Shown: one piece after another, positions 1,836-17,874 of the stretch | How positions within the stretch are numbered: position 1 is the stretch's first letter | Layout of the letters: every line of letters begins with the position of its first letter | Origin: Deltaproteobacteria bacterium | GTDB lineage: Bacteria > Planctomycetota > Planctomycetia > Planctomycetales > Planctomycetaceae | Direction of reading: 5' to 3' | NCBI GenBank assembly: GCA_050257335.1 | Contig: JBLMWR010000089.1 | Location: 1 to 31,442 of the forward strand | DNA length: 31,442 bases | Position numbers and translations under genes: made by a program | Notes under the pieces: model-generated | The model's database searches: none | What the model saw: the letters and a program-made list of their open reading frames with translations, nothing else | What the model was told of the DNA's origin: nothing

Positions 1836-2849
1836 TCAGTTTTTTTCATGATCGTACTTGTCGCGCAGGGTGAGGTTCACTTCAAGGACGTTAATCAGAC
1901 CGACGCCGACCAGCCCGCCCAGCGGGGCTTCCTTCTTCTCCTGGAGGAGCGTTTCGATTTCCTTGCGCACCTCATCGACGTTACGGTTCGCGTCGGCGGC
2001 CCGCCTGGCGGCGACGCGGTCGAGCTGGTAGAGCGCATTTTTCAGGCTGATGTGCGGATCAAGGCCGGAACCGGAGGCCATCACCATGTCGGCGGGCACG
2101 GGCACGAGTTCGGCGTTCGGGTGCTCCTGCCGCCACATATCGAAGAAGATCCCCTGGATCTCTGTTCCCACTTTGACCGTCTGAATCTTCTTCTCGATCG
2201 TGCCGTCGTCGGCCGCCAATTCCACGGCGCTCGGGAACATCCCCGGATGCTCCTTCGAGAAGCTGTTGAAGAAAATGCCCGCCAGGTCTTCGGGCTTCGG
2301 CTCGGGATTATTGTTCTCCTTTTTCCACTGGGACACTTCGTCGGCGTGGTCGCCTGCCCAGGCCATCACGTATGCGCCGTTCAGGGGATCGGCCTTGGCC
2401 CAGTTTGCGGCGACAGCCGAATGCGCCGCGGCCCATTGGGCCACGATCCCCGGATGGCCTTGGAACTGGTCCTTCTGGAACCAGGCTTCGATGTCCGGTC
2501 CCACGGGCTGCCCCTTCCTGGCACCGGCGTACTTCACAATCGGGCCGAGCTGGCGGGCCACCCGCGCGCGAAGCAGATAGTTATTGGCGCCCCAGTTCGA
2601 GGCGCCCGAGCCGGCGGCGTTGTACGAAACAGCCGACGGACGTGGCTGAAAATACCCTTCGCCGCTGAAGGGCTGGGCGATCAGCCGCGAGCCGATCGGA
2701 TTGCCGTCTTTGTCATACAGCAGGCTCCCTTGCGCCTTGTCGTGGAACACTGTCTGTCCAATGAGCAGCAGGATGCCCGGGTAGATGAGGCAGCACAAGA
2801 CCACGGTCAGGACCAGAAGCAGCAGGTTGGCACGCAGGTGCGGAAGCAT
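1836..2849 (-). CDS. kdpC: K+-transporting ATPase subunit C, long form (337 aa)
   Basis: N-terminal TM helix, GSRLIAQPF..GYFQPRPSA, GASNWG, PADMVMASGSGLDPHIS and INVLEVNL motifs. ATG 2849 has an AAGGA SD; the ORF-track start at 3062 runs through a repeat element and is unlikely. Confidence 0.95.
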   Translation of the reverse strand: MLPHLRANLLLLVLTVVLCCLIYPGILLLIGQTVFHDKAQGSLLYDKDGNPIGSRLIAQPFSGEGYFQPRPSAVSYNAAGSGASNWGANNYLLRARVARQLGPIVKYAGARKGQPVGPDIEAWFQKDQFQGHPGIVAQWAAAHSAVAANWAKADPLNGAYVMAWAGDHADEVSQWKKENNNPEPKPEDLAGIFFNSFSKEHPGMFPSAVELAADDGTIEKKIQTVKVGTEIQGIFFDMWRQEHPNAELVPVPADMVMASGSGLDPHISLKNALYQLDRVAARRAADANRNVDEVRKEIETLLQEKKEAPLGGLVGVGLINVLEVNLTLRDKYDHEKN

Positions 2850-2975
2850 CGTTTTTCCTTCGCGATTCTTCAATTCGGGAATCGATGAAGAGCGACGAGG
2901 GACGCCCGGGCCCCTCGCGCATCCACACCCCCAAATAGTTCGGCGGCAGATTGAGCTGCGAATTCGAAAAGAAGT

Positions 2976-3046
2976 CTCACGCAAAGTCGCAAAGACGCGA
3001 AGGTTGCGAATGGCCGTTTCTTTGCGACTTTGCGCCTCTGCGTGAG
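2976..3046. repeat. Imperfect palindrome built from 8-nt (NCGCAAAG) units, in the kdpB-kdpC spacer
   Basis: Left arm CTCACGCAAAGTCGCAAAGACGCGAAG (2976-3002). Right arm CTTTGCGACTTTGCGCCTCTGCGTGAG (3020-3046), whose reverse complement is CTCACGCAGAGGCGCAAAGTCGCAAAG. Confidence 0.85.
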
Positions 3047-3098
3047 GTTCGTCATTTGTCATTCTCTTTCGGTCGTATGTCCTTCAAGGATTGAAACA

Positions 3099-5282
3099 TC
3101 AAGAGATAACGTGCATGCCGACAAGGACGACGTCGAGAAGCTTGATACCGATGAACGGAACGATCACGCCCCCCAGCCCCCAGATCAAAAGATTCCGCCG
3201 GAGCAGTGCGTCCGCGCCGACCGGGCGATACTCGACCCCCTTGAGCGCGATGGGGATAAGCAGCGGAATGATGATCGCGTTGAAAATCACCGCCGCCAGG
3301 ATGGCCGAGGTCGGCGAATGCAGATTCATCACGTCGAAGCTCTTGAGCCACGGCAGCGTGCCGGCGAACAGCGCCGGGACGATGGCGAAATACTTGGCCA
3401 GGTCGTTGGCGATCGAGAAGGTGGTCAGGGCCCCCCGGGTCATCAGGAGCTGCTTGCCGATTTCGACCACTTCGATCAGCTTCGTCGGATCGCTGTCGAG
3501 ATCGACCATGTTGCCGGCCTCCCTGGCGGCCTGCGTTCCCGAGTTCATGGCCACGCCGACGTCGGCTTGCGCGAGCGCGGGGGCGTCGTTGGTTCCGTCC
3601 CCCATCATAGCCACGAGCTTGCCGGCTGCCTGCTCCCTGCGGATGTAGTCGAGTTTCGCTTCGGGCGTGGCCTGGGCGATGAAGGCATCGACGCCGGCCT
3701 GTTCGGCAATGGCTTTGGCCGTCAGCGGGTTGTCCCCCGTGACCATGACGGTCCTCAACCCCATGCGCCGCAGCCGCTCGAACCGGTCGCGCATGCCGGG
3801 CTTCAATATGTCTTCCAGCACGACGAGCCCGGCGAGTTTGCTCCCTTCGCAGACGAGGAGCGGGGTGGCGCCGCGCGAGGCGACTTCGTCCACCTGCTGC
3901 TGAACGCCCGAGCCGAGGTGGCCATTACTCTGCTGCACGTATCTGATCACTGAATCCGGAGCCCCCTTGCGGATCTTCCTCCCATCGGCGAGGTCCAGGC
4001 CGCTCATGCGGGTCTGGGCCGTGAATTCGACGAATTTCGATCCCTGGGGAATGACGGCTTCGAGCGGCAACGTGGCGGCCGACAGGCGGCTTCCCCCGGA
4101 TTCGGCCGGCATCTTCTGAAACAGCTCGACAATGCTCTTTCCCTCGGGGGTCTGGTCGGCGACCGAGGCCAGGGCCGCCAGTCGCCCCAGATCGGTGGCC
4201 GTGTAGCCGTCGAGCGGAACAAATTGCGTGGCCCGCCGATTGCCGACCGTGATCGTCCCGGTCTTGTCCAGGAGCAGCGTATCGACGTCACCGGCGACTT
4301 CAACCGCCTTGCCGCTCTTGGAAAGGATGTTGGCCCTGAGCGCCCGGTCCATCCCTGCGATTCCAATCGCCGCGAGCAGCGCGCCGATCGTCGTCGGAAT
4401 AAGGCACACGAGCAGCCCGACGAGCGTCGGGATGTCGGTTCCCAGGCCCTTGATCGCTTCGGACACGCCGAGATACGACTGCATGTACACCTCGGCGTAG
4501 CAGGCCATGGGCCACAGGGCGGCGGTGACGATGAGGAAGATCAGCGTAAAGGCCGAGAGAACCAGCGACAGCGCGATCTCGTTGGGCGTGCGCTGGCGGA
4601 TGGCCCCCTCGACCAGGGCGATCATGCGGTCGAGGAAGGACTTCCCCGCGCTGGCCGTGATCTCGACGACGATGCGGTCGGAGAGGACGCGCGTTCCGCC
4701 GGTGACACCCGAGCGGTCACCCCCCGCTTCACGGATGACGGGAGCCGACTCGCCGGTGATCGCCGATTCGTCAACTGACGCCACGCCCTCGACGATCTCG
4801 CCGTCGCCGGGGATCACCTGCCCGGCCTCGACCACAACGTGGTCTCCGGCTTGAAGTGCGGTAGACACAGTTTCTTCGATCTGGCCCTTGTCCCGGAGGC
4901 GCCGCGCGGGGGTTTCGCGGCGGGTCTTGCGGAGCGTATCGGCCTGGGCCTTGCCGCGAGCTTCCGCGAGCGCCGTCGCGAAATTCGCGAACAGCACGGT
5001 GGCGAAGAGCCAGACGTCGAGCTGGATGAGATAAGGCAACTGGGTGCCGGGCGCGAGGAACGTAAAGATGATGCTCAAGAACGTCCCAATCTCGACGACG
5101 AACATTACCGGGTTCTTCCATTGGATGTCCGGACGCAGCATCACGAGCGACTGTCTGAGCGCCGCTTTGAGCAGATGCGGCGCGAACAGCCCGTAGCGGC
5201 GGCTGGCGCGGCGGCTGAGTTTCAATTCCTCGGGTGAACCGGGTTGCACCGGAGGAGACTGGACAAGGGTGGCTTCTGACAT
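3099..5282 (-). CDS. kdpB: K+-transporting P-type ATPase subunit B (727 aa)
   Basis: [17 protein letters not shown], phosphorylation motif DKTGTIT, KGAPD, TGDN and [18 protein letters not shown]. Confidence 0.99.
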
Positions 5283-5333
5283 GGGAATCTCGCGTCAGGA
5301 AAAACCGGCGGCGTCGTTTACTCACACCGCTTC

Positions 5334-5387
5334 AGATTTCGGATTTCGAATCTGGGATTTTGGATTTCGTTAGACGTTCGTCATTCG
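5334..5387. repeat. 7-nt-period degenerate repeat (GGATTTC / TTCGTCATTCG) in the kdpA-kdpB spacer
   Basis: AGATTTC GGATTTC GAATCTG GGATTTT GGATTTC ... TTCGTCATTCG. Same family in reverse complement at 11127-11178, with a short copy at 3048-3064. Confidence 0.75.
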
Positions 5388-5397
5388 TATCGTGGGG

Positions 5398-7287
5398 TTA
5401 CCCCCCGAACGGCAGCGGGCCGAGATGTTCGGCGACGGGGCCCAGCACGGCGGCCGGCAGGAACAGCAGAGCGCCGATGAGCAGGATCGTTCCCAGCAGC
5501 ACGAATCCAAATGTGATCGTGTCCGTGCGCAATGTTCCGACCGTTTGAGGCGTCGGCCTCTTGGCCGCGAGGCTTCCTGCGAGGGCGATCGGGGCAATGA
5601 TGGGAATAAACCGGCCGAACAACATCGCCAGTCCGCAGGCGATGTCCCAGTGGAAGCCAAAAGGAGCCAGCGGCGGAGTGTCGTTGAAGCCGTACGAGTC
5701 TCCCAGCCCCTCGAAGCCCGAACCGTTATTGGCTGAGGCGGAGGAGAACTCATAGAGCACTTCCGAAAAGCCGTGCGCCGCCGGGCTGTTCATGGCTTTC
5801 ATTCCCCAATCGGTCGCCACAAACAATCCCGTTGGGATGAGGATCAAGAGCGGGTGCGCCAGCATGGCCAGCGAGGCGAGCTTCATTTCGCGGGCCTCCA
5901 CCTTCTTCCCCAGGTATTCGGGCGTGCGACCGACCATGAGGCCCGCCAGGAAGACGCCGATCACCAGGTAAACGAGCAGATTAATCAGTCCGACGCCCAC
6001 ACCCCCCCAGATGCAGTTCAGCCACATTCCGGTCAGTGGCGTCACACCCGCCAGCGGATTCAGGCTGTCGTGCATGCAGTTGACTGAGCCGTTTGAGGTA
6101 TTCGTTGTGAGCGCCGCCCATGTGGCGCCGGCCGACGTGCCGAACCGCAGTTCCTTGCCCTCGAGATTCCCCATTTCCTGATCGACGGGCAGATCCGGCA
6201 ACACGGTCGATTGCGGTTTATCCAGACCGCTTTTGGCCGGATCACGGTCTGTCAGATCGGCCGACCGGCCCGAATGGGCCACGACCCAGACCGGTTTCGC
6301 AGCGCCGCCCGCCTGGGGCACGTCCTGCGGATAGACGAGATCGGCCCTGGCCATAAGAGCCGGATTCGGCTGCGCTGTATCCCAATACAGGACCCATCCG
6401 ATCGTCGTCAGCGACAGCACCAGCATGACGCCGAAGATGACGGCGGCATGGCGAAAGTTGTTCAGCATCTTTCCGAACATGACCAGCGTCGAGACGGGAA
6501 TCAGAATGATTCCCAGGCAGGTCAGGAAATTCGTGTAGCTGTTGGGGTTCTCGAAGGGATGCGCGCTGTTGATGGCAAAGTAACCGCCGCCGTTCGTCCC
6601 GAACTGCTTGACGGCGACGATCGCCGCGACCGGTCCGAGACAGATCTCCTGCGGCTTGGCAACTCCCGCGTCGTCGTTGCCCATGGCGCCAGCTTCGACG
6701 GTGGCCGCCTTCACGCTCCCCTCCAGCGTCATCGGCATGCCCCCCGCAACGAGCAGGGTTGCGACAACCAGGCAAAGCGGCACAAAGAAATAGGCGACGC
6801 CGCGCCACAGATCCACGTAGAAATTCCCCATGTGCCTGTCGCCCCGCAGGCCGCGGATAATCGCCAGCAGCGCGGCCAGACCGATGATCGGCGACAGGAT
6901 CTGCTTCCAGCAGATGAAGAACAACTGGCTGAAATACGAAAGATGGACTTCGCCGGAATAGTGCTGCTGGTTGGTGTTCGTCATGAACGACACGGTGGTG
7001 TGGAAGATCGTGCTCGGGGAAAGCATGCCTTTGTTGTCGGGGTTGAGCGGCAGCCAGGGCTGCAGGCTCAGAACGGCGAACCCGACGACGAACGTCACGA
7101 TATTGAACAGCATGAACGCCACACAGTACTGCTTCCAGTCCTGTGGGCCGGTGTCCAGTTTTTCCTCAATCCAGCGAAGCCAGGTGGGCAGACGGAACCC
7201 GCCGTCAAAGACCCGCGCCATATACAGGCCCAGCGGGATCGCGAGAACGAACGCCGTCGCGAGGATGAGAATCGGCAGAGTCCACAT
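5398..7287 (-). CDS. kdpA: K+-transporting ATPase subunit A (629 aa)
   Basis: Four selectivity-filter segments TNTNQQHYSGE, GTNGGG, TSNGSVN and NNGSGFEGL; also GNLEGKELRFG and GRTPEYLGKK. ATG 7287 is preferred over the SD-less TTG at 7407. Confidence 0.97.
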   Translation of the reverse strand: MWTLPILILATAFVLAIPLGLYMARVFDGGFRLPTWLRWIEEKLDTGPQDWKQYCVAFMLFNIVTFVVGFAVLSLQPWLPLNPDNKGMLSPSTIFHTTVSFMTNTNQQHYSGEVHLSYFSQLFFICWKQILSPIIGLAALLAIIRGLRGDRHMGNFYVDLWRGVAYFFVPLCLVVATLLVAGGMPMTLEGSVKAATVEAGAMGNDDAGVAKPQEICLGPVAAIVAVKQFGTNGGGYFAINSAHPFENPNSYTNFLTCLGIILIPVSTLVMFGKMLNNFRHAAVIFGVMLVLSLTTIGWVLYWDTAQPNPALMARADLVYPQDVPQAGGAAKPVWVVAHSGRSADLTDRDPAKSGLDKPQSTVLPDLPVDQEMGNLEGKELRFGTSAGATWAALTTNTSNGSVNCMHDSLNPLAGVTPLTGMWLNCIWGGVGVGLINLLVYLVIGVFLAGLMVGRTPEYLGKKVEAREMKLASLAMLAHPLLILIPTGLFVATDWGMKAMNSPAAHGFSEVLYEFSSASANNGSGFEGLGDSYGFNDTPPLAPFGFHWDIACGLAMLFGRFIPIIAPIALAGSLAAKRPTPQTVGTLRTDTITFGFVLLGTILLIGALLFLPAAVLGPVAEHLGPLPFGG

Positions 7288-7323
7288 GGCAAAGGCAGCC
7301 TTTCGCAGGATGGGCTTCCCGGC

Positions 7324-7347
7324 CCGTCCGTCCGTCCGTCCGTCCGT
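7324..7347. repeat. (CCGT)6 tetranucleotide microsatellite
   Basis: Six perfect CCGT units between kdpF and kdpA. Confidence 0.95.
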
Positions 7348-7444
7348 TACAAATGTTGATCGCTCTGCAAGCGGCACGCATGGTTCATCCACGCCTTCGG
7401 CCGCCAATTACGCACGGGCTTGGAAGCCCATGCTGCAGGCACGA

Positions 7445-7525
7445 CTAGAACCACTCTGGTCGCAAGAGCGCGGCCATGAGGTAGACGAAGAGCAACACAG
7501 TGACAATGGCGGTGAGCACCAGCAT
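7445..7525 (-). CDS. kdpF: KdpF subunit (26 aa)
   Basis: MLVLTAIVTVLLFVYLMAALLRPEWF*: single TM helix with the YL..ALLRPE.F KdpF signature, a GAGGGG SD, and directly upstream of kdpA. Too short for the ORF track. Confidence 0.93.
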   Translation of the reverse strand: MLVLTAIVTVLLFVYLMAALLRPEWF

Positions 7526-7537
7526 GAATGCCCCTCT

Positions 7538-7633
7538 TTAAACTTTTTCACAACCAATGATGAAAGCGCACATGAGCCCGAGGACAACCAGCCCCAGGAG
7601 CAACAGGGCCGGAATCCAGATGGAAAGGTTCAT
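7538..7633 (-). CDS. Small single-TM peptide upstream of kdpF (KdpG/KdpZ-like, 31 aa)
   Basis: MNLSIWIPALLLLGLVVLGLMCAFIIGCEKV*: GGAG SD 7 nt upstream, hydrophobic core, C-terminal GCEKV, stop 12 nt before the kdpF ATG. Confidence 0.8.
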   Translation of the reverse strand: MNLSIWIPALLLLGLVVLGLMCAFIIGCEKV

Positions 7634-7678
7634 AAGTCGCTCCGTTTTCGTTCGTGTAACCCGATTGACCCTTCTAAA

Positions 7679-7694
7679 CGCAACGCCTATGCCA
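7679..7694 (-). promoter_or_regulatory. Sigma-54 (-24/-12) promoter of the kdp operon
   Basis: Minus strand TGGCATAGGCGTTGCG = GG-N10-GC with TGGCA and TTGC flanks, ending 45 nt before the first kdp ORF. A sigma-54 activator is encoded nearby. Confidence 0.8.
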
Positions 7695-7732
7695 ATGCCG
7701 CGACGAAACCGCAAACATTTCACTGACGCGAG

Positions 7733-7762
7733 GTTGTGAATTTTTTCGCGCCGTGTCACAAC
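7733..7762. promoter_or_regulatory. Inverted repeat GTTGTGA-N16-TCACAAC with a T-tract, between the enhancer and the sigma-54 promoter
   Basis: Perfect 7-bp arms at 7733-7739 and 7756-7762, with T6 at 7741-7746. Confidence 0.4.
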
Positions 7763-7770
7763 ATCCAGAA

Positions 7771-7785
7771 CGTGCACTGTGCACG
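7771..7785. promoter_or_regulatory. Candidate upstream activator site 1 (CGTGCA-CTG-TGCACG)
   Basis: Palindrome centred at 7778, about 110 bp upstream of the inferred sigma-54 transcription start. Confidence 0.65.
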
Positions 7786-7801
7786 AACTGTTTCAACTGT
7801 T

Positions 7802-7817
7802 CTTGCAATTTGCATGA
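7802..7817. promoter_or_regulatory. Candidate upstream activator site 2 (CTTGCA-ATT-TGCATGA)
   Basis: Same TGCA-N3-TGCA core, centred at 7809, 31 bp (three helical turns) from site 1. Confidence 0.6.
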
Positions 7818-7977
7818 CGCTCGCCTGAGTGCCTTCGTAAACGGTTTCTCCATTCCCTCGACCGTCTGATCCGGCCCTGCAGTCCGCCGAATTCCGGGCC
7901 GCATGTCCCAGATGACCGTTGAGAACTCCGGCAGCGGCGCCGACGAGAGCACCTGCGCTCAGACGACAGGTCCGAGA

Positions 7978-8021
7978 AACAAAAAAGCCCTCGGCGCGCC
8001 GCTCGCGGCGCACCAAGGGCT
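7978..8021 (-). terminator. Rho-independent terminator of element B
   Basis: About 16-bp GC-rich stem (8021-7986) followed by a U-tract on the minus strand. Confidence 0.85.
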
Positions 8022-8061
8022 CTCACAGCCGAATTAAACTGCCACTCATGGGAAGCCAATA
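7978..8061 (-). ncRNA. Leader/sRNA element B ending in an intrinsic terminator
   Basis: Follows a TTGACA-N17-TAGTTT promoter. Ends in the hairpin AGCCCTTGGTGCGCCG-CGAG-CGGCGCGCCGAGGGCT followed by TTTTTGTTT. GGCTT (8057-8053) can pair with GAGCC at the foot of the terminator. Confidence 0.5.
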
Positions 8062-8067
8062 ACCGTA

Positions 8068-8096
8068 AAACTAACCGGCCGGCATCTGGCTGTCAA
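8068..8096 (-). promoter_or_regulatory. Sigma-70-type promoter TTGACA-N17-TAGTTT
   Basis: Perfect -35 (8096-8091), 17-nt spacer, TAnnnT -10 (8073-8068). Confidence 0.7.
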
Positions 8097-8155
8097 CAAG
8101 AATTTGATTAATGAAACGGGCGCGCGAGGCAGTTTGGACCGCCCGCTCGAGACGA

Positions 8156-8183
8156 GTAGGACGACCTTCTCAGGTCGTCCTAC
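8156..8183. repeat. Perfect palindrome with GTAG/CTAC ends (REP-like)
   Basis: GTAGGACGACCT-TCTC-AGGTCGTCCTAC: 12-bp perfect arms starting with the GTAG tetranucleotide typical of REP sequences. Confidence 0.7.
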
Positions 8184-8209
8184 AGTGTCCAAGCCATGCC
8201 GTGCGCCCG

Positions 8210-8290
8210 AAATAAAAGAACCCTTCGAACGCCGGGGCCGTTTCGAAGGGTTCTCGCAGCCACATTGACCTGCCGCTGCTCAGGAGGCGG
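8210..8290 (-). ncRNA. Leader element A ending in an intrinsic terminator
   Basis: Hairpin AGAACCCTTCGAA...TTCGAAGGGTTCT (13-bp perfect, 8254-8217) followed by TTTATTT. The region 8274-8246 is 23/29 identical to element B (8043-8015). No clear promoter was found. Confidence 0.45.
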
Positions 8291-8486
8291 CCACAGGATG
8301 GGTTCAGTTCTGCAATCGGTTTTGTGAAGCGAGTGTTTCTCTCCTTCGCCGGTTGGCGTCCAAAACCGCGATCAGCCGGTTTCGCGGGTGCCAATCGTTC
8401 GGGCTGGCAATCTGGCGGGCGGATTCGACAGGAATCCGGCCCGGCTCGGCGGACTTCCCAAAGATTGCATCCCGCACGATCGCACC

Positions 8487-8497
8487 TGCAGATTGCA
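8487..8497. promoter_or_regulatory. TGCA-GAT-TGCA site upstream of the GGDEF promoter
   Basis: Third copy of the TGCA-N3-TGCA core, 37 nt upstream of the -35 at 8535. Confidence 0.45.
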
Positions 8498-8534
8498 AAG
8501 CGAGGATGACGAAAAAAGGCCTGGCGGATACCGT

Positions 8535-8564
8535 TTGACAGTGCTGCGTACCACGGCCCATAAT
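8535..8564 (+). promoter_or_regulatory. Sigma-70-type promoter TTGACA-N18-CATAAT
   Basis: Perfect -35 (8535-8540) and 5/6 -10 (8559-8564), just before leader C. Confidence 0.7.
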
Positions 8565-8570
8565 TCAAAT

Positions 8571-8658
8571 TGTGTGACGGCTCCTCGCGACCGGGCAGGC
8601 GCGGTCGGGCAGTGAAAGCCGCTCTGTGCGACGACCGCAGGGCGAGGCTTTTTTTATT
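8571..8658 (+). ncRNA. Riboswitch/attenuator-like leader C of the GGDEF gene
   Basis: CGGCT (8578-8582) can pair with AGCCG (8617-8621), competing with the terminator AAAGCC...GGCTTTTTTT (8615-8655). Internal hairpin CGACCG-GGCAGGCG-CGGTCG. The terminator ends about 25 nt before the ATG at 8682. Confidence 0.55.
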
Positions 8659-8681
8659 CCCCTGATTTCGACGGGGCTTCG

Positions 8682-9608
8682 ATGCCGCCAGACCTCCGCG
8701 AGCACGACGAGCGGGAACGATCTCTCCGCCTGATGGCGGCTATCGTCGACTCCTCCGGCGACGCCATCTTTAGCCAGAATTGGGACGGCGCGATCACGAG
8801 CTGGAACCACGGAGCCGAGCAGATGTTTGGCTATTCCTCCGCGCAGGCGCTCGGACAATCCGAAACGATCATTGTTCCGCCCGAGTATGAGAATGAGCTG
8901 TCGCAGATTCGCGGAAAAATCCGACGCGGCGAGCGGATCGAAAATTTCGAGGCGGTGCGGTGGACGAAGTTTGGGCGGCGCATTTGCGTGTCGATCAGCG
9001 TTTCGCCGGTCAGGAACGAGTCCGGCGTCCTCATCGGCGTGGCGAACATCGTCCGCGACATCACGGCACGCAAGGAGGCCGAGGCCCGGATTCTGCACCT
9101 GGCGTATTTCGACGCTCTCACCGAACTGCCGAACCGGACGCTGTTCCAGGACCGCCTGCAGCAGGCCGTGGCGCTCGCAAAACGGCAGAACCGCTTGCTG
9201 GCCGTGCATTTTCTGGATCTGGACCATTTCAAGAACGTCAACGATTCGCTGGGGCACTTGCAGGGGGATGCACTCCTGCGGGCGGTCGCCGAGCGCCTGC
9301 AGCGCTCGATCCGTGCCAGCGACACCGTGGCGCGGTTTTCCGGCGATGAGTTCGCCGTCCTGCAGACCGATCTCGCGCACGCGGAGGGTGCCGCCACGCT
9401 GGCGGGCAGGCTCCTGGCCGTGATTTCCGAGCCCTACCTGATCAACCAGCAGACAGTCCGCACGACGGCCAGCATCGGTATCGCGATCTACCCTCTTGAC
9501 GATGCGTCCGGAAGCCAATTGGTGCAGAACGCGGACAGGGCCATGTACCAGGCCAAGAAGAGCGGGCGGAATGATTTCTGGTTCTATGGCGAAGAAACGG
9601 AGACATAG
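8682..9608 (+). CDS. PAS-GGDEF diguanylate cyclase-type protein (308 aa)
   Basis: PAS (IVDSSGDAIFS...ITSWNHGAEQMFGYS...VSISVSPVRN...IVRDIT), then DALTELPNR, DLDHFKNVNDSLGH..GD, I-site RASD five residues before SGDEF, and ADRAMYQAK. No EAL domain. Confidence 0.93.
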   Translation: MPPDLREHDERERSLRLMAAIVDSSGDAIFSQNWDGAITSWNHGAEQMFGYSSAQALGQSETIIVPPEYENELSQIRGKIRRGERIENFEAVRWTKFGRRICVSISVSPVRNESGVLIGVANIVRDITARKEAEARILHLAYFDALTELPNRTLFQDRLQQAVALAKRQNRLLAVHFLDLDHFKNVNDSLGHLQGDALLRAVAERLQRSIRASDTVARFSGDEFAVLQTDLAHAEGAATLAGRLLAVISEPYLINQQTVRTTASIGIAIYPLDDASGSQLVQNADRAMYQAKKSGRNDFWFYGEETET

Positions 9609-9641
9609 CGCCTCCGCCTTCGAAAGGCACCCCGCGCCCGT

Positions 9642-9658
9642 TCGTGCAATTTGCACGA
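9642..9658. promoter_or_regulatory. Perfect palindrome TCGTGCA-ATT-TGCACGA upstream of the regulator operon
   Basis: Fourth and most symmetric copy of the TGCA-N3-TGCA motif, 129 nt upstream of the regulator ATG. Confidence 0.6.
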
Positions 9659-9727
9659 TCGCCGCAACCTCTGATCGGCCGGTCTCTAATTGTGAATGGT
9701 GCTGAAATCGTTCATGTCGGGGGAGTT

Positions 9728-9790
9728 ATGAAGGAATCGCGGCTCCGCAACGCCGCCGGCACGAAGAATGCGGTTTGGGGTCGTTCATGA
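9728..9790 (+). CDS. Possible 20-aa upstream ORF coupled to the regulator
   Basis: GGGGGAG SD, then [20 protein letters not shown]. Its TGA overlaps the regulator ATG (ATGA at 9787-9790). Confidence 0.3.
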   Translation: MKESRLRNAAGTKNAVWGRS

Positions 9791-11121
9791 ATATTCTCTT
9801 GATCGATGACGACCAGAGCCTGCGCAAGTCGATCCGCATGGCGCTGGAAACGATGAACCATCGCGTGACCGAGGCGAGCGATGGCGCGCAGGCGCAAGAA
9901 CTCCTGGGACATAGCTTGTTCGACGTCGCCTTTCTCGACGTTCGTCTCGGTCGCGAAAAGGGACTGGACCTGCTGCTGACGCTATTGCGGCTGGCCCCGG
10001 GGCTGGCGGTCGTGGTCATTACCGCGTATGCGACAATCGAGACGGCCGTCGAAGCGATGCGGCGCGGAGCGTTTGATTTTCTGCCGAAGCCGTTCACGCC
10101 GGACGAGCTTCGCCGCGTGCTGGAACGCGTCGTTCGCATCCGCCGGCTCGAGTCGCACGTGGAGGAACTGGAGGATCAGGTCCGCTCGATCGTCCCCGAG
10201 GCCGACCTGCAGACGGAAGAGCCGGCAATGCAGCACGCGGTGGAAATGGCCTTTCGGGCGGCCCCGACGGAAGCCACGATTCTGCTGCGCGGCGAAAGCG
10301 GGACCGGCAAGGGGGTGCTGGCGCGGGCCATTCATGCCCGCAGTCAGCGGGCCGCGGCGCCGTTCATTACGGTCAATTGCCCGAGCCTGTCGGCGGAGCT
10401 GCTGGAGAGCGAGCTCTTCGGGCACGTCCGCGGGGCCTTTACGGGGGCGGTTCAGGATACCGAGGGGAAAGTCGCGGCGGCCGAGGGAGGGACGCTGTTT
10501 CTCGACGAGATCGGCGATCTGCCGCTGGGCCTGCAGCCGAAACTGCTGCGGCTTCTGCAGGAGAAGCGGTATGAGCGGGTCGGAGAGACGCGGACGCGGG
10601 TGTGCGACGTGCGAATTCTGGCGGCCACGAATCGCGACCTGCGCACCGCGGTCGCCAAAGGGACGTTTCGCGAGGATTTGCTGTACCGCCTCAACGTGAT
10701 TGAAATCGAGCTGCCTCCCTTGCGACAGCGGCAGAAAGACATCCTGTTTCTGGCCGAACATCTGCTGCAGTTTTTCGCGAAGCAGGCGGGCAAACCGGGT
10801 TGCACGTTCACGCCGGAAGCCCGCGAGGCGCTGCTGAAACACCCTTGGCCGGGAAACGTGCGGGAACTGCGGAACGCCATTGAGCGGGGCGTCATCCTGG
10901 CTCCTGGCCTGGAGGTGGGGCTGTCGGATCTGCCGGCACAGATCGGCGCGTCGCTGCCTGCCGGCGTTATCGAGCTGGGCGGCGGCGTGACGCTCGAACA
11001 GCTCGAAGCCGAATACATCCGCCGCGTCCTGGCAAAGACGGCGACCATGGACGAGGCGGCCACGGTTCTGGGGATCGACCCGAGCACGCTGTACCGCAAG
11101 CGCAAACGGCACGGACTTTGA
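9787..11121 (+). CDS. Sigma-54-dependent response regulator (NtrC family, AlgB-like; 444 aa)
   Basis: Receiver ([22 protein letters not shown]), AAA+ ([51 protein letters not shown]) and Fis-type HTH ending [18 protein letters not shown], like Pseudomonas AlgB. Confidence 0.96.
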
Positions 11122-11126
11122 AACGG

Positions 11127-11178
11127 ACGAATGACGAAATCCGAATGTCCAAACAGATCCGAAGCCCGAATGACAAAG
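11127..11178. repeat. 7-nt-period degenerate repeat (NCGAATG / NCGAAAT)
   Basis: ACGAATG ACGAAAT CCGAATG TCCAAAC agat CCGAAGC CCGAATG; reverse-complement family of 5334-5387. Confidence 0.75.
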
Positions 11179-11229
11179 GAAACCTGTCTATTTCACCGCA
11201 ACCTTCCGCCACGACTAGAACAAAAGGAA

Positions 11230-11310
11230 ACCGCGGATGACGCTGATGAAGGCGGATGTGCGCGTTGACCCTGATCTTATTTATCCGTGCGTATCCGCGT
11301 CATCCGCGGT
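11230..11310. repeat. Imperfect palindrome built from 9-nt (NNCGCGGAT-like) units
   Basis: Left arm ACCGCGGATGACGCTGATGAAGGCGGAT (11230-11257) versus the reverse complement of the right arm ACCGCGGATGACGCGGATACGCACGGAT (11283-11310): 22/28 identical. Confidence 0.85.
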
Positions 11311-11358
11311 GCCTCTCTTTTAATTTCTCCAAACTGACATTCCTGAATCAGTCCACCG

Positions 11359-13266
11359 ATGACCCTGACGCTGCGGCAACGCATCTTCCTGACACTGGTT
11401 CCCCTGCTGCTGCTGCTGGCGGTGGTGGGGAGCGCGGGGGTGGCGCTGCTGCTGCGGCTGGGGAACAGCATCAACGAGATCTTGCGCGAGAACTACGCCA
11501 GCGTCATCGCGATGGAGCGGCTCAACGAGTCACTGGAACGGATTGACTCGTCGTTCCAGATTGCAATGAGCGGAAGAGATGACAGGGAGCTGCTGGAGAA
11601 GGCCCGCACGCAGTATGAGCAAAACTGGAAGGAGTACCTCGAGGAGTTTGAGAAGGAGCAGAACAACATTACGCTCCCCGGGGAGGGAGACCTCGTCGGT
11701 CAGCTCGAGTCGCTGACGCAGGAATACCGGTCGCTCGGGGACGCCTTTTTCGCCAGCGCCGGGAAGGAAGCCGAGCAGCGGAAAGCCTATTACGGGCATC
11801 CCTCCGGCCTGTTGGAGACCTTCGGGCGGATTAAAGAGGTTACTGGAAAGATCCTGCGGATCAATCAGCAAAACATGGAGGACGCCGGCCGGCGCGCACG
11901 GCAGCTCGCGCTCGATTCGCTGACGTGGTTCGGCGCCGGCCTGGCGTTGGCCATCCTCCTGGCTGGAATTTCGGCCTGGCACACGGTCCGCACGATCCTG
12001 CAGCCAATCGGGGCAATGACTCTGGCGGCCCAGGAAATCAGCGCGGGAAATCCCGATCAGGTCGTGCCGTTCGTCGGACGCGACGAGCTGGGGCAGCTTG
12101 CGCAGGCCTTCAACACCATGGCGCATCACCTGCGCGAGTACCGGCAGTCGCAATCGGCCCAGCTCTTGCGCGCCCAGCAGACGATCCAGGCGACGATCGA
12201 TTCTTTTCCCGACCCGGTGCTGGTGATCGACCTGGAAGGGTCCGTGGAGATGGCCAACCCCGCCGCGCGGCGGCTGCTCGGGGTGGTTCCGAAGCAAAAG
12301 GGGCAGGCGGCGTCGGGGATCTGGCACCCGCTGGATTCGCTTCGCCAACCCCTGACCGAAGCCCTGCAGGGACAGCGCGACTTCCTGCCGGAAGGCTTCG
12401 ACCGGGCGATTCTGGTCGGTTCCAACGGGCGAGAACGGGCGATGCTCCCGCGGATCCTCACGATTCGCGATCCGCACGGATATACGCTGGGGGCCGCCGT
12501 GGTGCTGCAGGACGTCACTCGCCTGCGGCTGCTCGACCAGGTCAAAAGCAATCTCGTGGCGACCGCCAGTCACGAACTGAAAACGCCGCTGACCAGCATC
12601 CGCCTGGCGGTGCACCTGCTCCTTGAAGAAACGGTGGGGCCCCTCACCCCCAAGCAGATGGAGCTCCTGCTGGATGCCCGGGAAAACAGCGAGCGGCTCT
12701 TGGCTATGGTCAATAACCTGCTTGATCTGGCGCGCCTCGAAAAGGGATCGCGGCAGCTCGATGTGCGCGCGGAATCCGCCGAGTCGCTGCTGCAGTCGGC
12801 GGCCGACGCCGTTCGCCCGCGTGCGGACGACAAGGGAATCGAGATCGTGGTCGAGGTTCTGCCGGGGCTGCCGCCGGTTGCGGTTGACGCCTCACGGCTG
12901 GGCCACGCCCTGCGAAACTTGCTGGATAATGCCCTCACGTACACTGACCGGGGAGGCCGGATTACGCTGTCGGCCAGTGCCGATGCTGAGGCGGTCATCC
13001 TGTCTGTCGCCGACACGGGGATCGGCATTCCGGCCGAGCACGTTACGCATGTCTTCGAAAAGTTCTTCCGAGTGCCGGGACAAAGCCGCGGAACAGGAAC
13101 CGGACTGGGACTGGCCATCGTGAACGAAATCGTCGCCGCCCATGGCGGAACAATCACCTGCGAGAGCCGGCCGGGCGCGGGCACGGTATTCCGGATGCGG
13201 CTGCCGCTGTCGGAGGGAAGCCTCGACGCGGGATACGCGTTCGGTCACTTGGAGACACAACGATGA
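11359..13266 (+). CDS. Membrane sensor histidine kinase (KinB-like: 2 TM, helical periplasmic domain, HAMP, PAS, HisKA, HATPase; 635 aa)
   Basis: TM1 IFLTLVPLLLLLAVVGSAGVALLL, TM2 TWFGAGLALAILLAGISAW, HAMP (RDELGQLAQAFNTM), PAS (IDSFPDPVLVID...ANPAARRLLG), H-box ASHELKTPLTSI, and NLLDNA, DTGIGI, GTGLGLAI. Confidence 0.95.
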   Translation: MTLTLRQRIFLTLVPLLLLLAVVGSAGVALLLRLGNSINEILRENYASVIAMERLNESLERIDSSFQIAMSGRDDRELLEKARTQYEQNWKEYLEEFEKEQNNITLPGEGDLVGQLESLTQEYRSLGDAFFASAGKEAEQRKAYYGHPSGLLETFGRIKEVTGKILRINQQNMEDAGRRARQLALDSLTWFGAGLALAILLAGISAWHTVRTILQPIGAMTLAAQEISAGNPDQVVPFVGRDELGQLAQAFNTMAHHLREYRQSQSAQLLRAQQTIQATIDSFPDPVLVIDLEGSVEMANPAARRLLGVVPKQKGQAASGIWHPLDSLRQPLTEALQGQRDFLPEGFDRAILVGSNGRERAMLPRILTIRDPHGYTLGAAVVLQDVTRLRLLDQVKSNLVATASHELKTPLTSIRLAVHLLLEETVGPLTPKQMELLLDARENSERLLAMVNNLLDLARLEKGSRQLDVRAESAESLLQSAADAVRPRADDKGIEIVVEVLPGLPPVAVDASRLGHALRNLLDNALTYTDRGGRITLSASADAEAVILSVADTGIGIPAEHVTHVFEKFFRVPGQSRGTGTGLGLAIVNEIVAAHGGTITCESRPGAGTVFRMRLPLSEGSLDAGYAFGHLETQR

Positions 13267-13343
13267 TTCATGCCCGCCATTCATATCCGAGGGCGACGCT
13301 GCCAGCGTCGCCCACGAATGTCCTCGTGCGGAGTTGACCAGCC

Positions 13344-14474
13344 GTGGCCACTGACGACACCCGGCCGGCGCCCGAGCATTTCCTGACGCTGATCCGCCAG
13401 CAGCAGCGGGGGCGGCTCAAGATTTATCTGGGTTTTGCCGCCGGCGTCGGCAAGACGTATGAGATGCTGCAGGAAGGACATCGTCTGAAACGGCGCGGCG
13501 TGGACGTCGTCATCGGCCTCGTGGAGACGCACGGGCGGGCTGAAACGATCGCGCAGATCGGCGACCTCGAGCAGGTCCCGCGCCGCAAAATCGAATTTCA
13601 CGGCGTGACGCTCGAGGAGATGGACCTCGACGCCATCCTCGCGCGCCGCCCCAGCGTCGTTCTGGTCGACGAGCTGGCCCACACCAACGCCCCCGGGAGC
13701 CGGAACGCCAAACGCTATCAGGATGTCGACGAGCTGCTGCAGGCGGGGATCAACGTCATCAGCACGCTCAACATCCAGCACCTCGAGAGTCTGTACGACA
13801 TGGTCGAACGGGCCATCGGCGTGAAGGTGAAGGAACGCGTCCCCGACTACGTTCTGGGGATGGCCGACCAGTTGGTGAACGTGGACGTGTCGGCCGAGGA
13901 CTTGCGCGAGCGGCTGCAGGCGGGCAAGGTCTATCCGGCGGAGCGGATCGACACGGCCCTGCAGAATTTCTTCACGCAGGTCAACCTCACCCGCCTGCGG
14001 GAGCTGGCCCTGGAAGAAATCGCCCACCGGCTCGACCGGCGGCGGACGAAACACGATGCTGACGAGAACCAGGGGGGCTCCGAACGCGTCATGGTCTGCC
14101 TCAGCTCGCGGAGCCCTCATGCCGAGCAGTTGCTCCGCAAGGGAGCGCGACTCGCGGATCGACTCGGCGCCCCGTGGTACGCCGTCTACATCCAGACTCC
14201 TGACGAGGAGCTTGACCGCATCGACGCGGCGACCCAGCGGCGGATCACCAATACGCTGACCCTGACCCAGCAGATGGGGGGAACCCCCATGACCTTCAAG
14301 GGAAGCGACGTGGTGAGCACGGTGGCGGCGTTCGCCAACGAGTACGGGATCACGCATATCGTGATGGGCCGCACGCAGCGCCCCTGGTACCGGCGCCTGT
14401 TCAGCCAGTCGGTCCTCGACGGCCTGCTGCAAGCAGTCCCGCACGTGGACGTGATCGTCGTCGGCGCCCGCTGA
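13344..14474 (+). CDS. kdpD: Stand-alone KdpD N-terminal sensor + Usp domain protein (truncated KdpD, 376 aa)
   Basis: GRLKIYLGFAAGVGKTYEML, GLVETHGRAET, EEMDLDAILARRP..VLVDELAHTN, KRYQDV, STLNIQHLESL, then a Usp domain. No TM helices or kinase core. GTG start with GGAG SD. Confidence 0.93.
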   Translation: MATDDTRPAPEHFLTLIRQQQRGRLKIYLGFAAGVGKTYEMLQEGHRLKRRGVDVVIGLVETHGRAETIAQIGDLEQVPRRKIEFHGVTLEEMDLDAILARRPSVVLVDELAHTNAPGSRNAKRYQDVDELLQAGINVISTLNIQHLESLYDMVERAIGVKVKERVPDYVLGMADQLVNVDVSAEDLRERLQAGKVYPAERIDTALQNFFTQVNLTRLRELALEEIAHRLDRRRTKHDADENQGGSERVMVCLSSRSPHAEQLLRKGARLADRLGAPWYAVYIQTPDEELDRIDAATQRRITNTLTLTQQMGGTPMTFKGSDVVSTVAAFANEYGITHIVMGRTQRPWYRRLFSQSVLDGLLQAVPHVDVIVVGAR

Positions 14475-14621: not shown

Positions 14622-14710
14622 AGCCCGGAAGGGGCGAGATTCAATAGCCCGGGGCGCGAGCCCTGGGTATCGTCGGCAAACCCGAGGGAAGCCCCAACGG
14701 GGCGAGATTC
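14622..14710. repeat. REP-like three-hairpin element between convergent genes
   Basis: Direct repeats AGCCCGGAAGGGGCGAGATTC (14622-14642) and AGCCCCAACGGGGCGAGATTC (14690-14710), 18/21 identical, flanking the hairpin CCCGGGGC-GCGA-GCCCTGGG (14648-14667). Confidence 0.7.
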
Positions 14711-14773: not shown

Positions 14774-17602
14774 TCACGCCGCGCGGCCGGCGTGGTCTTC
14801 ATCCTGCGGCGGATCGTCATGAAATTCGGCGATGCGCAGGAACTCAAGCGTGTTTGGGGCTTCGTCAAACTCGTTCGATGACTCAGCGGACAGCAAATCG
14901 ACGGAGCGCGCCCCGCGGTGCCGGGTCATCCAGGTCAAAATCGCCGGTACGGTGATGACCGACACCAGGAGACACGTCCCGACGCCGATTGTCAGCACCA
15001 GTCCCAGGCTGTAGAGGCCGCGGTGGGCGGCGATCATCATGCTGCCGAAGCCGACCATGGTCGTGGTGGCGTTGACGAAAATGGCGTTGATGACACTGGC
15101 GGACGGAGTATAGGGTTCGGACTGCGACTGCGTCCGGAAATCGTGAATCACATGGACCCCGCCATCGACTCCCAGGCCGATGACCAGCGGGAGCACGATC
15201 AGATTGGCCGGGTTCAGGTCGACGTCGAAGAGACCCAGAACGCCGAACATCAGGGCCGTCCCGGCCAGCGGGGGCAACAGGGCCAAAAGACAATCGCGCA
15301 GGTTGCGAAAGTCGATCAGCAGGAAGATGCAGACGGCGATCAGGGCATAGATCCCGGCCGTCTCGTAGCTGTGCTTGATCGCCTTGGAGGCCTCGTAAGT
15401 CTGCAGCGGCGTGCCGGTCGCCTCGGGATCGACCGAGCGCACCTCGGCGATGAACTTTTCGAGGGGCTGGATGTCCCAGATCTGCGACTTGGGATAAACC
15501 TGCAGCAGCCATTTCCCCTGCGGGCTGATGAAGCGCCCCACGAGGGCCGGAGTAAGGTCGGCGGGGCTGACCGGCTCGGACTGGGCGATCGACGCCAGTC
15601 CGTGGAGCCGCCCCAGCAAGTCCGCCGCCAGCCGCGCCTGGTACTCGCGCAAGAGCTGCATCTGTGCCGGCTGGCTCAGCTCCGCAAGGTGATCGAGAAA
15701 GCGGTTGATCGTTTCGCGGGCCCCTCTCGCCGCGGACGAGGGATTCGACGCGAGCGCGGTCTCGATCCGCTCCAGCTCGACGCCGATCATGCTGGGATCG
15801 ACTTCGCGGGACTCCGGCGTGCGGGCCGGGAGCGAGGCCAGCTCGGCCCCGACGGCCTGCACCAGAAGCTGCGTTTCTTCCTCGGGATAATGCGGCAGGA
15901 TCGCCGCGAGTTCTTCGACGTGGTGCACCGTCGGCAGCGCTTCGAATTTCTTTTTCAGCTCGAGGACCTGCTTCGAGCTGTCGGCCAGCGACACGGCGAA
16001 GAGGAGCGAATTGTCGGCCTGATCGAAAATCCGCTTCTGGACTTCCACCGATTCCAGTCCGCTGGCCTGCAGGTGCAGCAGGTTGTAGTCGTATTCGACG
16101 CGCACCCCATAGGCAGCGATGCCGGCGATCGCCAGGCTCGACAGCCCCGTCACCCACACGGGATACTTCGAAGTCAGCGCCCGAAGCCAGCGGCTTTCCA
16201 GCGGCTTGGCGAGCGTATTTCCCGGGCGGCGGCGGTCGGCCACCACCAGGACTGCCGGCAGCACCACGAAGGCGGCCACGGTGCAGAGCAGAATTCCCCC
16301 GCCGGCGATGATCCCCAGCTCGGCGACGCCGGCGAAGTCGGTGAGCACTGCGCAATAAAAGGCGACCGACGACGAAATGGCGGCCGTCAGGATTCCGGGG
16401 CCCACGCTGGTCCCCGTTGCGATGACGGCCGACTGGGCGTCGAGCCCCTCATGCCGGCACTCCAGATACCGGAGCAGATACACCGTGGAATAGTCGATCC
16501 CGATGCCGATCAGCATGGCGGCAAACGACACCGACAGGATATTGAGGTGCCCGACAGCGAGGGTCGTGAAGCCGAATGACCACGCCATGCCGACCAGGAG
16601 GACGAGGTTGCCGAGGATGGGGTAGCGCAGGCCGCGAAAGCCGAGAACCATCAGGGCGGCGACGCCGAGAAACGAGAGGATCGAAGCGTAGAACATGGCC
16701 GTCTGAGACGAGCGCATTTCGTCGCTTTCGAGGACGGGAATGCCGGTCAGCGCCAGGCGCGCCCCGGCGTGCTGCCGGACGACCTCAGCCATCAATTCGC
16801 GCAGGCGGTCGATGGAAGGGGATGAGCCGTTGAAGTCGTTGGCGGTGGTCGTGGGCTGGGTCTTGAGGAACCCCATGGTTCCTTTTTCGTTCATCAGATA
16901 GCGATCGCGAAAAATTGTTTCGAGCTGGGACAGCTCCCCTGGCATCTGCGCCTGCCAGGGAGAATTGAAGCGCCGCTGGTCGCGCGCGTAGGTTTCGAGG
17001 CTCGACGCCAAGAGCGCGGTCTGCTGGACGAGAGGCTCGGTCATCAGGGCGGCGACCTCGGCCGGCTGAGAACCGGCCCGTTCGAGCGTCATCCGCAGCT
17101 CGCGTACGAACGACCGCAGGGTCAACAGGTCGAATTGCTGCAGAAGGGGGCTGAGCTGATCGAGCTGAGACAGGATCATCTGCAGTTGTTCGGGGGACGA
17201 ATACTGCAGCGACTTTTCGCGGAGATGGCTCAGATCGACCTTGTAGAGGACGTTCTTGAACAGGTCCTTTTCGCCCTCGAGCCGCCGGCCCAGGTCGTCG
17301 AGCGTCCGCTTGATCGTCTCGGCATCATCGGCTTCGATGACGACGACCATGTCCTCGGTGACGTCTCCGAATTCCCGCGTATAGTTCATCCACCGCTGGT
17401 GGTACTCGGTGCTGGGGTCGATGAGGTCGGCACGGCTGGTTTTGAAGGCCAGATGATCGCGGGTGTAAAGGGTGCAGAGTGCGGCCAGTCCCAGGCAGAC
17501 GAACAGGGTAAACGCCGGAAAACGGGCCACCGCCACGGTCGTCCAGTGCAGAATCGCTTCGACTGGCGAGCGGCGCGAGCGTTCCGGTGGATGTCCAGAC
17601 AT
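14774..17602 (-). CDS. MMPL/RND-superfamily lipid transporter, HpnN-like (942 aa)
   Basis: Two TM clusters with LNILSVSFAAMLIGIGIDYS and LNPANLIVLPLVIGLGVDGGVH, large periplasmic domains, RLALTGIPVL and ATGTPLQTYE. ATG 17602 chosen over the track start at 17758. Confidence 0.85.
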   Translation of the reverse strand: MSGHPPERSRRSPVEAILHWTTVAVARFPAFTLFVCLGLAALCTLYTRDHLAFKTSRADLIDPSTEYHQRWMNYTREFGDVTEDMVVVIEADDAETIKRTLDDLGRRLEGEKDLFKNVLYKVDLSHLREKSLQYSSPEQLQMILSQLDQLSPLLQQFDLLTLRSFVRELRMTLERAGSQPAEVAALMTEPLVQQTALLASSLETYARDQRRFNSPWQAQMPGELSQLETIFRDRYLMNEKGTMGFLKTQPTTTANDFNGSSPSIDRLRELMAEVVRQHAGARLALTGIPVLESDEMRSSQTAMFYASILSFLGVAALMVLGFRGLRYPILGNLVLLVGMAWSFGFTTLAVGHLNILSVSFAAMLIGIGIDYSTVYLLRYLECRHEGLDAQSAVIATGTSVGPGILTAAISSSVAFYCAVLTDFAGVAELGIIAGGGILLCTVAAFVVLPAVLVVADRRRPGNTLAKPLESRWLRALTSKYPVWVTGLSSLAIAGIAAYGVRVEYDYNLLHLQASGLESVEVQKRIFDQADNSLLFAVSLADSSKQVLELKKKFEALPTVHHVEELAAILPHYPEEETQLLVQAVGAELASLPARTPESREVDPSMIGVELERIETALASNPSSAARGARETINRFLDHLAELSQPAQMQLLREYQARLAADLLGRLHGLASIAQSEPVSPADLTPALVGRFISPQGKWLLQVYPKSQIWDIQPLEKFIAEVRSVDPEATGTPLQTYEASKAIKHSYETAGIYALIAVCIFLLIDFRNLRDCLLALLPPLAGTALMFGVLGLFDVDLNPANLIVLPLVIGLGVDGGVHVIHDFRTQSQSEPYTPSASVINAIFVNATTTMVGFGSMMIAAHRGLYSLGLVLTIGVGTCLLVSVITVPAILTWMTRHRGARSVDLLSAESSNEFDEAPNTLEFLRIAEFHDDPPQDEDHAGRAA

Positions 17603-17874
17603 GAGGAATCCCGCAGGCAATGCGTCAGTTCGACGCGGAGTCTGATCGTGATAATCTACGGAAAAGGCGATGGGCGGGGTGTTTACCAGAATCCCGGCTT
17701 TCTGGCAATCCCGACTCCTGCCTCGGCCCGCAAACCCAACGCAGGACGCAGGTTCCACAGTGAAGCGTCCGTTGGTGAATGCGGGGTCGCGACGTTCGGA
17801 ATGCGACGGTATAATTTGCGGCGTGAGGGGACGGCCGAATCATTCGCTCCACGAAGCGCTCTGCGTCAACCGCC

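Follow-up and report, generated by a model that had tools for sequence, protein, structure and literature searches.

The window (the whole stretch of 31,442 nucleotides that was analysed) carries a kdp operon on its minus strand and a set of regulator genes on its plus strand, separated by an intergenic region of 1 kb (Table 1). The open reading frames at positions 7640-8680 lacked a coding-like composition (GC3 of 0.55-0.65, compared with about 0.8 in genes), and the region was taken as intergenic on this basis. When both strands of positions 7500-9200 were read, three elements, A and B on the minus strand and C on the plus strand, were found where a preliminary description of this DNA had placed them, and the gene following C was confirmed with Pfam as encoding a PAS-GGDEF protein.

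The operon for the Kdp proteins starts with two small open reading frames and ends with an unusually long KdpC frame (1836-3062, minus strand; 408 aa as called), to which the KdpC profile was matched in two stretches; its length may reflect a duplication or an over-extended start. The set of kdp regulators is also unusual: beside a sigma-54 response regulator and a HAMP-PAS histidine kinase, the N-terminal sensor domain of KdpD occurs together with Usp as a separate protein with no kinase domain. The operon appears to depend on sigma-54, and the gene for the NtrC-type activator is divergent from it.

Table 1. Features of the kdp locus and of elements A, B and C, in window coordinates.
Feature	Position	Strand	Evidence or remark
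kdp operon: 31-aa ORF, KdpF-like ORF, KdpA, KdpB, KdpC	1836-7633	-	translations, Pfam
31-aa hydrophobic peptide ORF before kdpA	7633-7538	-	kept in sister genome G005
26-aa KdpF-like peptide, ending LLRPEWF	7525-7445	-	kept in sister genome G005
Sigma-54 type promoter of kdp, TGGCAT-N5-TTGC	7680-7694	-	sequence reading
Element B, leader	7981-8067	-	R1 65.5 bits, R2 53.7 bits
B terminator, 19 bp + U6	7983-8024	-	terminator scan; fold z-score -4.8
B P2, canonical, GGCU-GUGAG-AGCC	8018-8030	-	
B P1, weak, loop AUGAG	8037-8057	-	
Promoter of B: TTGACA 8096-8091, 17 nt, TAGTTT 8073-8068	8068-8096	-	sequence reading and own scan, 9/12
Element A, promoterless degenerate copy	8214-8298	-	R1 71 bits (trained on A)
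A terminator, 15-bp hairpin + U4	8214-8253	-	fold
A P2-like hairpin, third pair broken	8249-8261	-	
A P1-like hairpin, loop AGCAG	8268-8288	-	
Sigma-70 type promoter of C, TTGACA-18 nt-CATAAT	8535-8564	+	promoter scan, 11/12
Element C, complete leader RNA, canonical family member	8571-8655	+	R1 and R2 scores; no Rfam match
C P1: arms 8579-8586 / 8593-8600, loop GCGACC 8587-8592	8579-8600	+	alignment A3
C P2, mini-hairpin: GGCA, loop GUGAA, AGCC	8608-8620	+	alignments A3, A4
C intrinsic terminator hairpin + U7 tract	8617-8655	+	terminator scan; MFE fold -39.7 kcal/mol
Genes behind C	8682-14474	+	Pfam
PAS-GGDEF	8682-9608	+	
NtrC-type sigma-54 response regulator	9775-11121	+	
HAMP-PAS histidine kinase	11359-13266	+	
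KdpD sensor domain + Usp	13344-14474	+	

About 45 nt 5' of the first small frame of the operon, and downstream of A and B, lies a sigma-54 type sequence, preceded by inverted repeats at 7772-7784 and 7804-7814 of the minus strand (GTGCAC-A-GTGCAC and TGCAAATTGCA). Both the promoter, in the form TGGCAC-N5-TTGC, and the inverted repeats upstream of it are conserved in the sister genome G005 (alignment A5), the kdp locus of which has an A-type element only, upstream of kdp and directly after an upstream open reading frame, whereas B, C and the GGDEF gene are all absent. To judge from the sequence, kdp is most likely transcribed from a sigma-54 promoter of its own, situated downstream of the A and B terminators. 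The proposal that A and B form the leader of kdp was consequently not sustained, as the promoter and its repeats lie downstream of both elements and are conserved in G005, where B is absent.

The three elements are clearly related. A and B share 23 of 29 positions over their common stretch, as had been stated, and the 13-mer GGCWGYGARARCC occurs five times on both strands of the 5.68-Mb assembly (about three occurrences being expected by our own estimate), three of them inside 650 bp of the window, each immediately 5' of an intrinsic terminator. With R1, a covariance model built from 8 aligned copies (alignment A1), the scores were 71 bits for A, which belongs to the training set, 66 bits for B and 73 bits for C (E of 1e-13 to 1e-15); with R2, a second model built from 55 copies, C reached 61 bits and B 53.7 bits. 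The terminators of B and C were on the list of the terminator scanner, and all three elements fold as such. In C, the 3' arm of P2 doubles as the 5' foot of the terminator, the end of which is 26 nt from the ATG of the PAS-GGDEF gene. The preliminary description had given both B and C near-consensus promoters, which is correct for C, whereas B combines a perfect -35 box with a poor -10 box (3 of 6 matches) and is missing from the list of a stricter scanner. No promoter was found for A in our own promoter scan.

Since it has no promoter and its loops are degenerate, A is read as a decayed copy serving as a plain terminator, whereas B, at a distance of 345 nt from the kdp operon, is taken to be complete though weak. 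C is read as a canonical copy, which would gate the regulator operon. A and B are atypical for the family described below, being far from kdp, which has a promoter of its own.

A paralogue of C was found on another contig when the region was compared as DNA with relatives and with its own genome, and pattern searches added more. In the own genome, which is 78% complete, at least 38 full-length matches to R1 were obtained at E below about 0.02, of which 33 were below 1e-3. Matches to R2 were present in 33 of the 151 genomes of the same taxonomic family, and in a class-wide sample they were found in 19 of 35 Isosphaeraceae and in one of two genomes of a third family, with none in the 19 and 30 genomes of two other families. 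An exact-pattern scan over 185,000 species returned 52 stretches, and those confirmed by R2 were all from Planctomycetota (Tundrisphaera lichenicola P12, Singulisphaera and other Isosphaeraceae among them) with one exception, a weak 36-bit match in a MAG labelled Deltaproteobacteria. The scattered pattern matches in other phyla are expected chance matches. Modelling copies of the A/B/C type, as had been proposed, recovered a large family in Planctomycetota.

Searches against Rfam 15 at the gathering threshold gave nothing at A, B or C, and when positions 7400-8900 were searched at E up to 10, only chance matches to plastid and snoRNA models appeared. Twenty loci with family copies had no match at E up to 0.1. 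Neither ydaO, GEMM, nhaA-I and DUF1646, which the preliminary description had named for comparison, nor c-di-GMP-I/II, mini-ykkC, mepA, fluoride and NiCo matched in these searches, and no prior description of the leader family was found in the literature. The claim of a new family of leader and terminator is thus upheld by its absence from Rfam 15 and by the many copies detected with covariance models. It is an uncatalogued leader RNA family of Planctomycetia, of a kind already known, the terminator-switch leader; what is unusual is its copy number, its compact dual-pentaloop design and its coherent putative regulon.

The copies share a common anatomy. A promoter-like site with at least 9 of 12 matches was present at a fixed place in 86 of 114 copies, compared with 6% of shuffles, with its -10 box ending 0-4 nt 5' of the modelled RNA. 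The first element, P1, is an 8-bp hairpin in which compensatory changes were found at all 8 pairs, this being the covariation that the preliminary description had wished to see, and 91% of the cells were paired. Its covariation score was reached by none of 500 shuffles, and slid controls fell to 30-58% paired. The top of P1 is conserved as G-C, C-G, U-G and C-G (GCYC/GGGC). Between P1 and P2 runs a linker of no conserved sequence, the length of which is 6-8 nt in 81% of the copies.

P1 and P2 carry alike loops, an R-Y-G-A-N pentaloop in which G at position 3 is conserved in 97-99% and A at position 4 in 77-93%, and position 2 is U in 49-70% and C in 20-38% of the copies. The loop measured 5 nt in 98 of 111 copies for P1, which rarely has a hexaloop, and in all 111 for P2, and about 19 nt separate the two loops. 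The consensus of P2 is GGYU-RYGAN-AGCC, with a conserved GGYU strand; three of its pairs are nearly invariant, while at the fourth only about two thirds of the copies have a pair, which may be U-A, U-G, C-G or A-U. Partners that change in step were seen in a few copies (GGGU/ACCC/GGGU in L112 and GAGCU/AGCUC in L073), and P2 is regarded as plausible from these sequences, with weak covariation support. The 3' arm of P2, AGCC, was the terminator foot in all aligned copies, where it is placed at the bottom of the stem beside the U tract. All family copies end in a hairpin and a T run, and the upper terminator stem reads G-Y-G-C in 72 of 101 copies, its conservation being weak.

When canonical copies were truncated at the end of P2, the fold obtained was P1 plus P2, whereas the full-length copies formed the terminator next to P1 (z-scores -3.8 to -5.4); the full-length RNAs of A, B and C also folded with the terminator. 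The built-in two-state design that had been proposed is supported by this difference between truncated and full-length folds. The strand that had been assigned to the alternative state, a 5' GGCT segment, was not confirmed in that role. Although a GGCT/AGCC antiterminator can be formed in the truncated B and C RNAs, the segment is the lower 5' arm of P1, which is freely variable and covaries with its own 3' partner, and it was rejected as the mechanism of the family. The predicted family-wide competitor of the terminator foot is instead the conserved GGYU strand of P2, just upstream. Attenuation by a leader peptide was also rejected, because P1 begins a few bases after the transcription start and there is no space for an open reading frame.

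The genes behind the copies were identified with our own crude GC3-based caller. With these calls, 33 of the 38 copies in the own genome were co-oriented with the next gene, in agreement with the context bias anticipated earlier, and 24 of these 33 ended at most 130 nt from its start, leaving no space for another promoter. Some copies, A and B among them, are 200-900 nt from the next gene. The genes found in the own genome encode PAS-GGDEF, PAC2, PEP synthase, a GroEL paralogue, Usp, NorB, hemerythrin, an AMP-forming ligase, CHAD, alpha-amylase, a xanthine-dehydrogenase-like protein, YkoF-like proteins, DUF488, a SpoIIAA-like protein, a YgaP-like membrane protein and a SnoaL-like protein. Among relatives, pyruvate:ferredoxin oxidoreductase (PFOR) lies behind the motif in several genera of Isosphaeraceae, PEP synthase in two bacterial families, GroEL and Acs in two species of the own genus, and a conserved 70-aa protein in at least two genera; Hsp20, phosphoketolase, CBS, BON, a NuoF-like protein and a pyridine-nucleotide disulphide oxidoreductase were also found.

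The kinds of gene that recur are thus PFOR, PEP synthase, GroEL, Acs, Usp, Hsp20 and BON, and their recurrence across genera and families argues for a role in cis. Position on the same strand, closeness to the next gene and recurrent gene kinds were all found, as in cis-regulatory leaders. From the nature of the genes we infer that the regulon is a stress, low-oxygen or dormancy set. A genome-wide repeat or MITE was rejected, as the copies are very unlike in sequence with their structure kept, and the same kinds of gene stand behind the motif in other genera and in a second family.

For intrinsic termination to occur, the hairpin has to extend nearly to the U tract. A retained P2 should weaken termination, because the base of the terminator stem would be shortened, and we infer that the terminator is conditional. 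In the mechanism proposed here, a strong sigma-70 promoter would start the RNA a few bases 5' of P1, and P2 would form first during transcription; by default the 3' arm of the terminator would then displace P2 and transcription would stop. If a two-sided effector gripped both of the equal loops, held at a fixed distance, P2 would persist, the terminator stem would lack 4-5 pairs at its base and the polymerase would read on. An even chance is given to the view that the three elements belong to a family of leader RNAs acting in cis, by which the downstream gene is gated through such conditional termination. Slightly favoured overall is a hitherto undescribed RNA switch class of Planctomycetia, made of two R-Y-G-A-N pentaloop hairpins joined to a terminator, that would gate a stress and low-oxygen regulon of dozens of operons. 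Its reader would be a global signal molecule or an RNA-binding antiterminator protein of a new kind, for which a diverged CsrA paralogue may be a candidate.

A two-sided reader is suggested by the two equal loop modules and their fixed spacing. By analogy with known systems a dimeric RNA-binding protein is given about an even chance of being the effector and is rated above a small ligand. The closest known logic would be that of ANTAR antitermination. The targets of EutV, NasR and AmiR are dual-hairpin antiterminators (PMC8934654, PMC3369931), in which the hexaloops carry A1 and G4 (PMC8934654). They share with the leader family a pair of small hairpins whose loops are alike and whose spacing is constrained, the second hairpin reaching into the 5' base of an intrinsic terminator; termination is prevented when a dimeric protein holds this second hairpin, and several leaders occur per regulon. 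The family differs from them in its R-Y-G-A-N pentaloops with G at position 3 and A at position 4, in its long 8-bp P1 with the GCYC/GGGC top and in its dozens of copies per genome. The loops of the family do not fit the ANTAR rule. A search with PF03861 (ANTAR) gave no match in the own genome, but is uninformative, since it was equally silent in all of 14 control genomes.

A second protein considered was CsrA. In two-site binding by CsrA/RsmA, one homodimer spans a pair of hairpin loops with a spacing of some 18 nt, which compares with the roughly 19 nt between the loops of the leader family. Canonical CsrA sites need GGA, whereas the family loops have Y-G-A, and G was found at loop position 2 in only 4 of 98 P1 and 1 of 111 P2 loops. 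Paralogues of csrA are expanded in these bacteria, with 2-17 matches per genome among 151 Planctomycetia genomes and 14 in the own genome (on contigs C930, C347, C1110, C106, C590, C639 and others). The motif stands directly before a csrA paralogue in genome G081 (L071), and in G075 another paralogue lies downstream of it (L044); none of 12 csrA paralogues located by tblastn in the own genome adjoins a family copy. As a factor co-occurring with the motif CsrA was rejected, since it is present in 151 of 151 genomes, with or without the motif, and gives no signal.

The alternative to a protein is a small-molecule riboswitch, in which both pentaloops would dock around a ligand, as the ACGR loops of guanidine-II do, and lock P2 to give an ON switch; we regard this as rather unlikely. 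The expected ligand would report on stress, redox state or energy in general, as an alarmone or a dinucleotide does, and would not be K+. Guanidine-II (mini-ykkC) likewise has two tandem small hairpins with the same Y-G-containing loop (ACGR) and little other conservation, so that the amount of conserved sequence is about the same, and its function needs both loops together. In the leader family, Y2 and the invariant G3 of both loops could make symmetric Y-G/G-Y contacts, a conserved U-G wobble lies beside the P1 loop, and the two-state fold is also what a riboswitch would show. Many copies before varied genes are known for signal-sensing riboswitches, as for c-di-GMP-I in Geobacter. Both c-di-GMP-I (GEMM) and T-box leaders resemble the family in that one type of leader is reused before tens of operons and acts through a choice between terminator and antiterminator, but they contain large aptamers or tRNA-binding domains unrelated to it in sequence and structure. 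The likeness to guanidine-II is limited as well: its tetraloop contrasts with the pentaloop of the family, its invariant C2 with a position at which U is commoner than C, its variable linker with a fixed one, and its guanidine exporters with a different set of genes. RF01068 (guanidine-II) had no match at the family copies, and no Rfam riboswitch matched even at E of 0.1-10. Also speaking against a ligand, the conserved core is very small, offering little for a selective pocket, and the regulated genes have no common pathway or transporter that would indicate a metabolite.

The proposed protein-read leader would act on the gene behind it, whereas the product could also be the terminated transcripts of about 85 nt themselves, acting in trans, for instance as decoys for an RNA-binding protein, with gene position being secondary. 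The copies come with strong promoters of their own and with efficient terminators, some are distant from the next gene, and paired copies occur: divergent back-to-back pairs with overlapping or adjacent promoters at C794:883-1113 and C138:2676-2973 of the own genome, and tandem pairs on C708, in G001 (L062 and L063) and in G019 (L054). A terminated leader that also serves as a decoy is known in EutX, the decoy for EutV (PMC8934654). This view is considered unlikely, because most copies are co-oriented with the next gene (33 of 38) and too near to it for another promoter, the same kinds of gene follow the motif across genera, and the linker, the only unpaired stretch, is not conserved and provides no common seed. 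Action of the short RNAs in trans would nevertheless be compatible with either a protein or a ligand as effector.

Very unlikely is the absence of any switch, in which case the copies would be leaky terminators near a promoter, working constitutively, or else a dispersed repeat in which a promoter and a terminator happen to be included. The weak covariation of P2 would fit this, as would the A-type element of G005, which looks like a plain terminator after the upstream unit. Against it, copies within one genome vary widely in P1 sequence with pairing kept, which speaks against a recent burst of a repeat, and two families have kept the loop sequences, the length of the linker and the GGYU strand, none of which a mere terminator would need. 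Finally, a sensor of a cation (K+, Na+, Li+) or of c-di-AMP/c-di-GMP dedicated to the kdp locus would be suggested by the clustering of three copies between kdp and the regulator operon, by the GGDEF gene behind C and by the A-kdp arrangement retained in G005, but it is improbable in the extreme, and the link to K+ made in the preliminary description is likewise not supported, because K+ concerns only this one of about 40 loci in the genome, the family precedes unrelated genes here (PFOR, PEP synthase, chaperones, Usp and NorB being among those behind other copies) and hundreds elsewhere, the conserved sigma-54 promoter of kdp follows A and B, and ydaO, GEMM, nhaA-I and DUF1646 gave no match in Rfam.

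Gene regulation in Planctomycetia is almost unexplored. The compact RNA device described here appears to govern some 40 transcription units of a single genome, and in two bacterial families taken together their number runs to hundreds. With its enzymes of fermentation and anaerobic metabolism (PFOR, PEP synthase, phosphoketolase), its chaperones (GroEL, Hsp20), Usp, CBS and BON proteins, an NO reductase and a diguanylate cyclase, the gene set resembles a dormancy or hypoxia regulon, which would be run by termination rather than by initiation. Once found, the effector would represent a new class of riboswitch ligand or a new family of antiterminator proteins, and a portable genetic switch for the hard-to-engineer planctomycetes would follow. 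Tundrisphaera lichenicola P12, with 5 copies, is a cultured carrier of the leader family. Among RNA runs, none was found to contain the window, and the single run for the Tundrisphaera locus gave only seven short contigs with a depth of 2-3, too thin a coverage to place RNA ends.

Two further observations were made in the window. The only Rfam match at the gathering threshold in its whole length was an Acido-Lenti-1 RNA (RF01687) at 14622-14667 of the minus strand (42.7 bits, gathering score 37), just 3' of a gene at 14774-17758 of the same strand, in a phylum outside those in the name of that family. Between A and B, at 8156-8183, there is a dispersed palindromic hairpin, GGACGACCT-N4-AGGTCGTCC, which has 14 matches in the assembly at no more than two mismatches (on contigs C91, C582, C253, C501, C513 and others), roughly ten of which look real.
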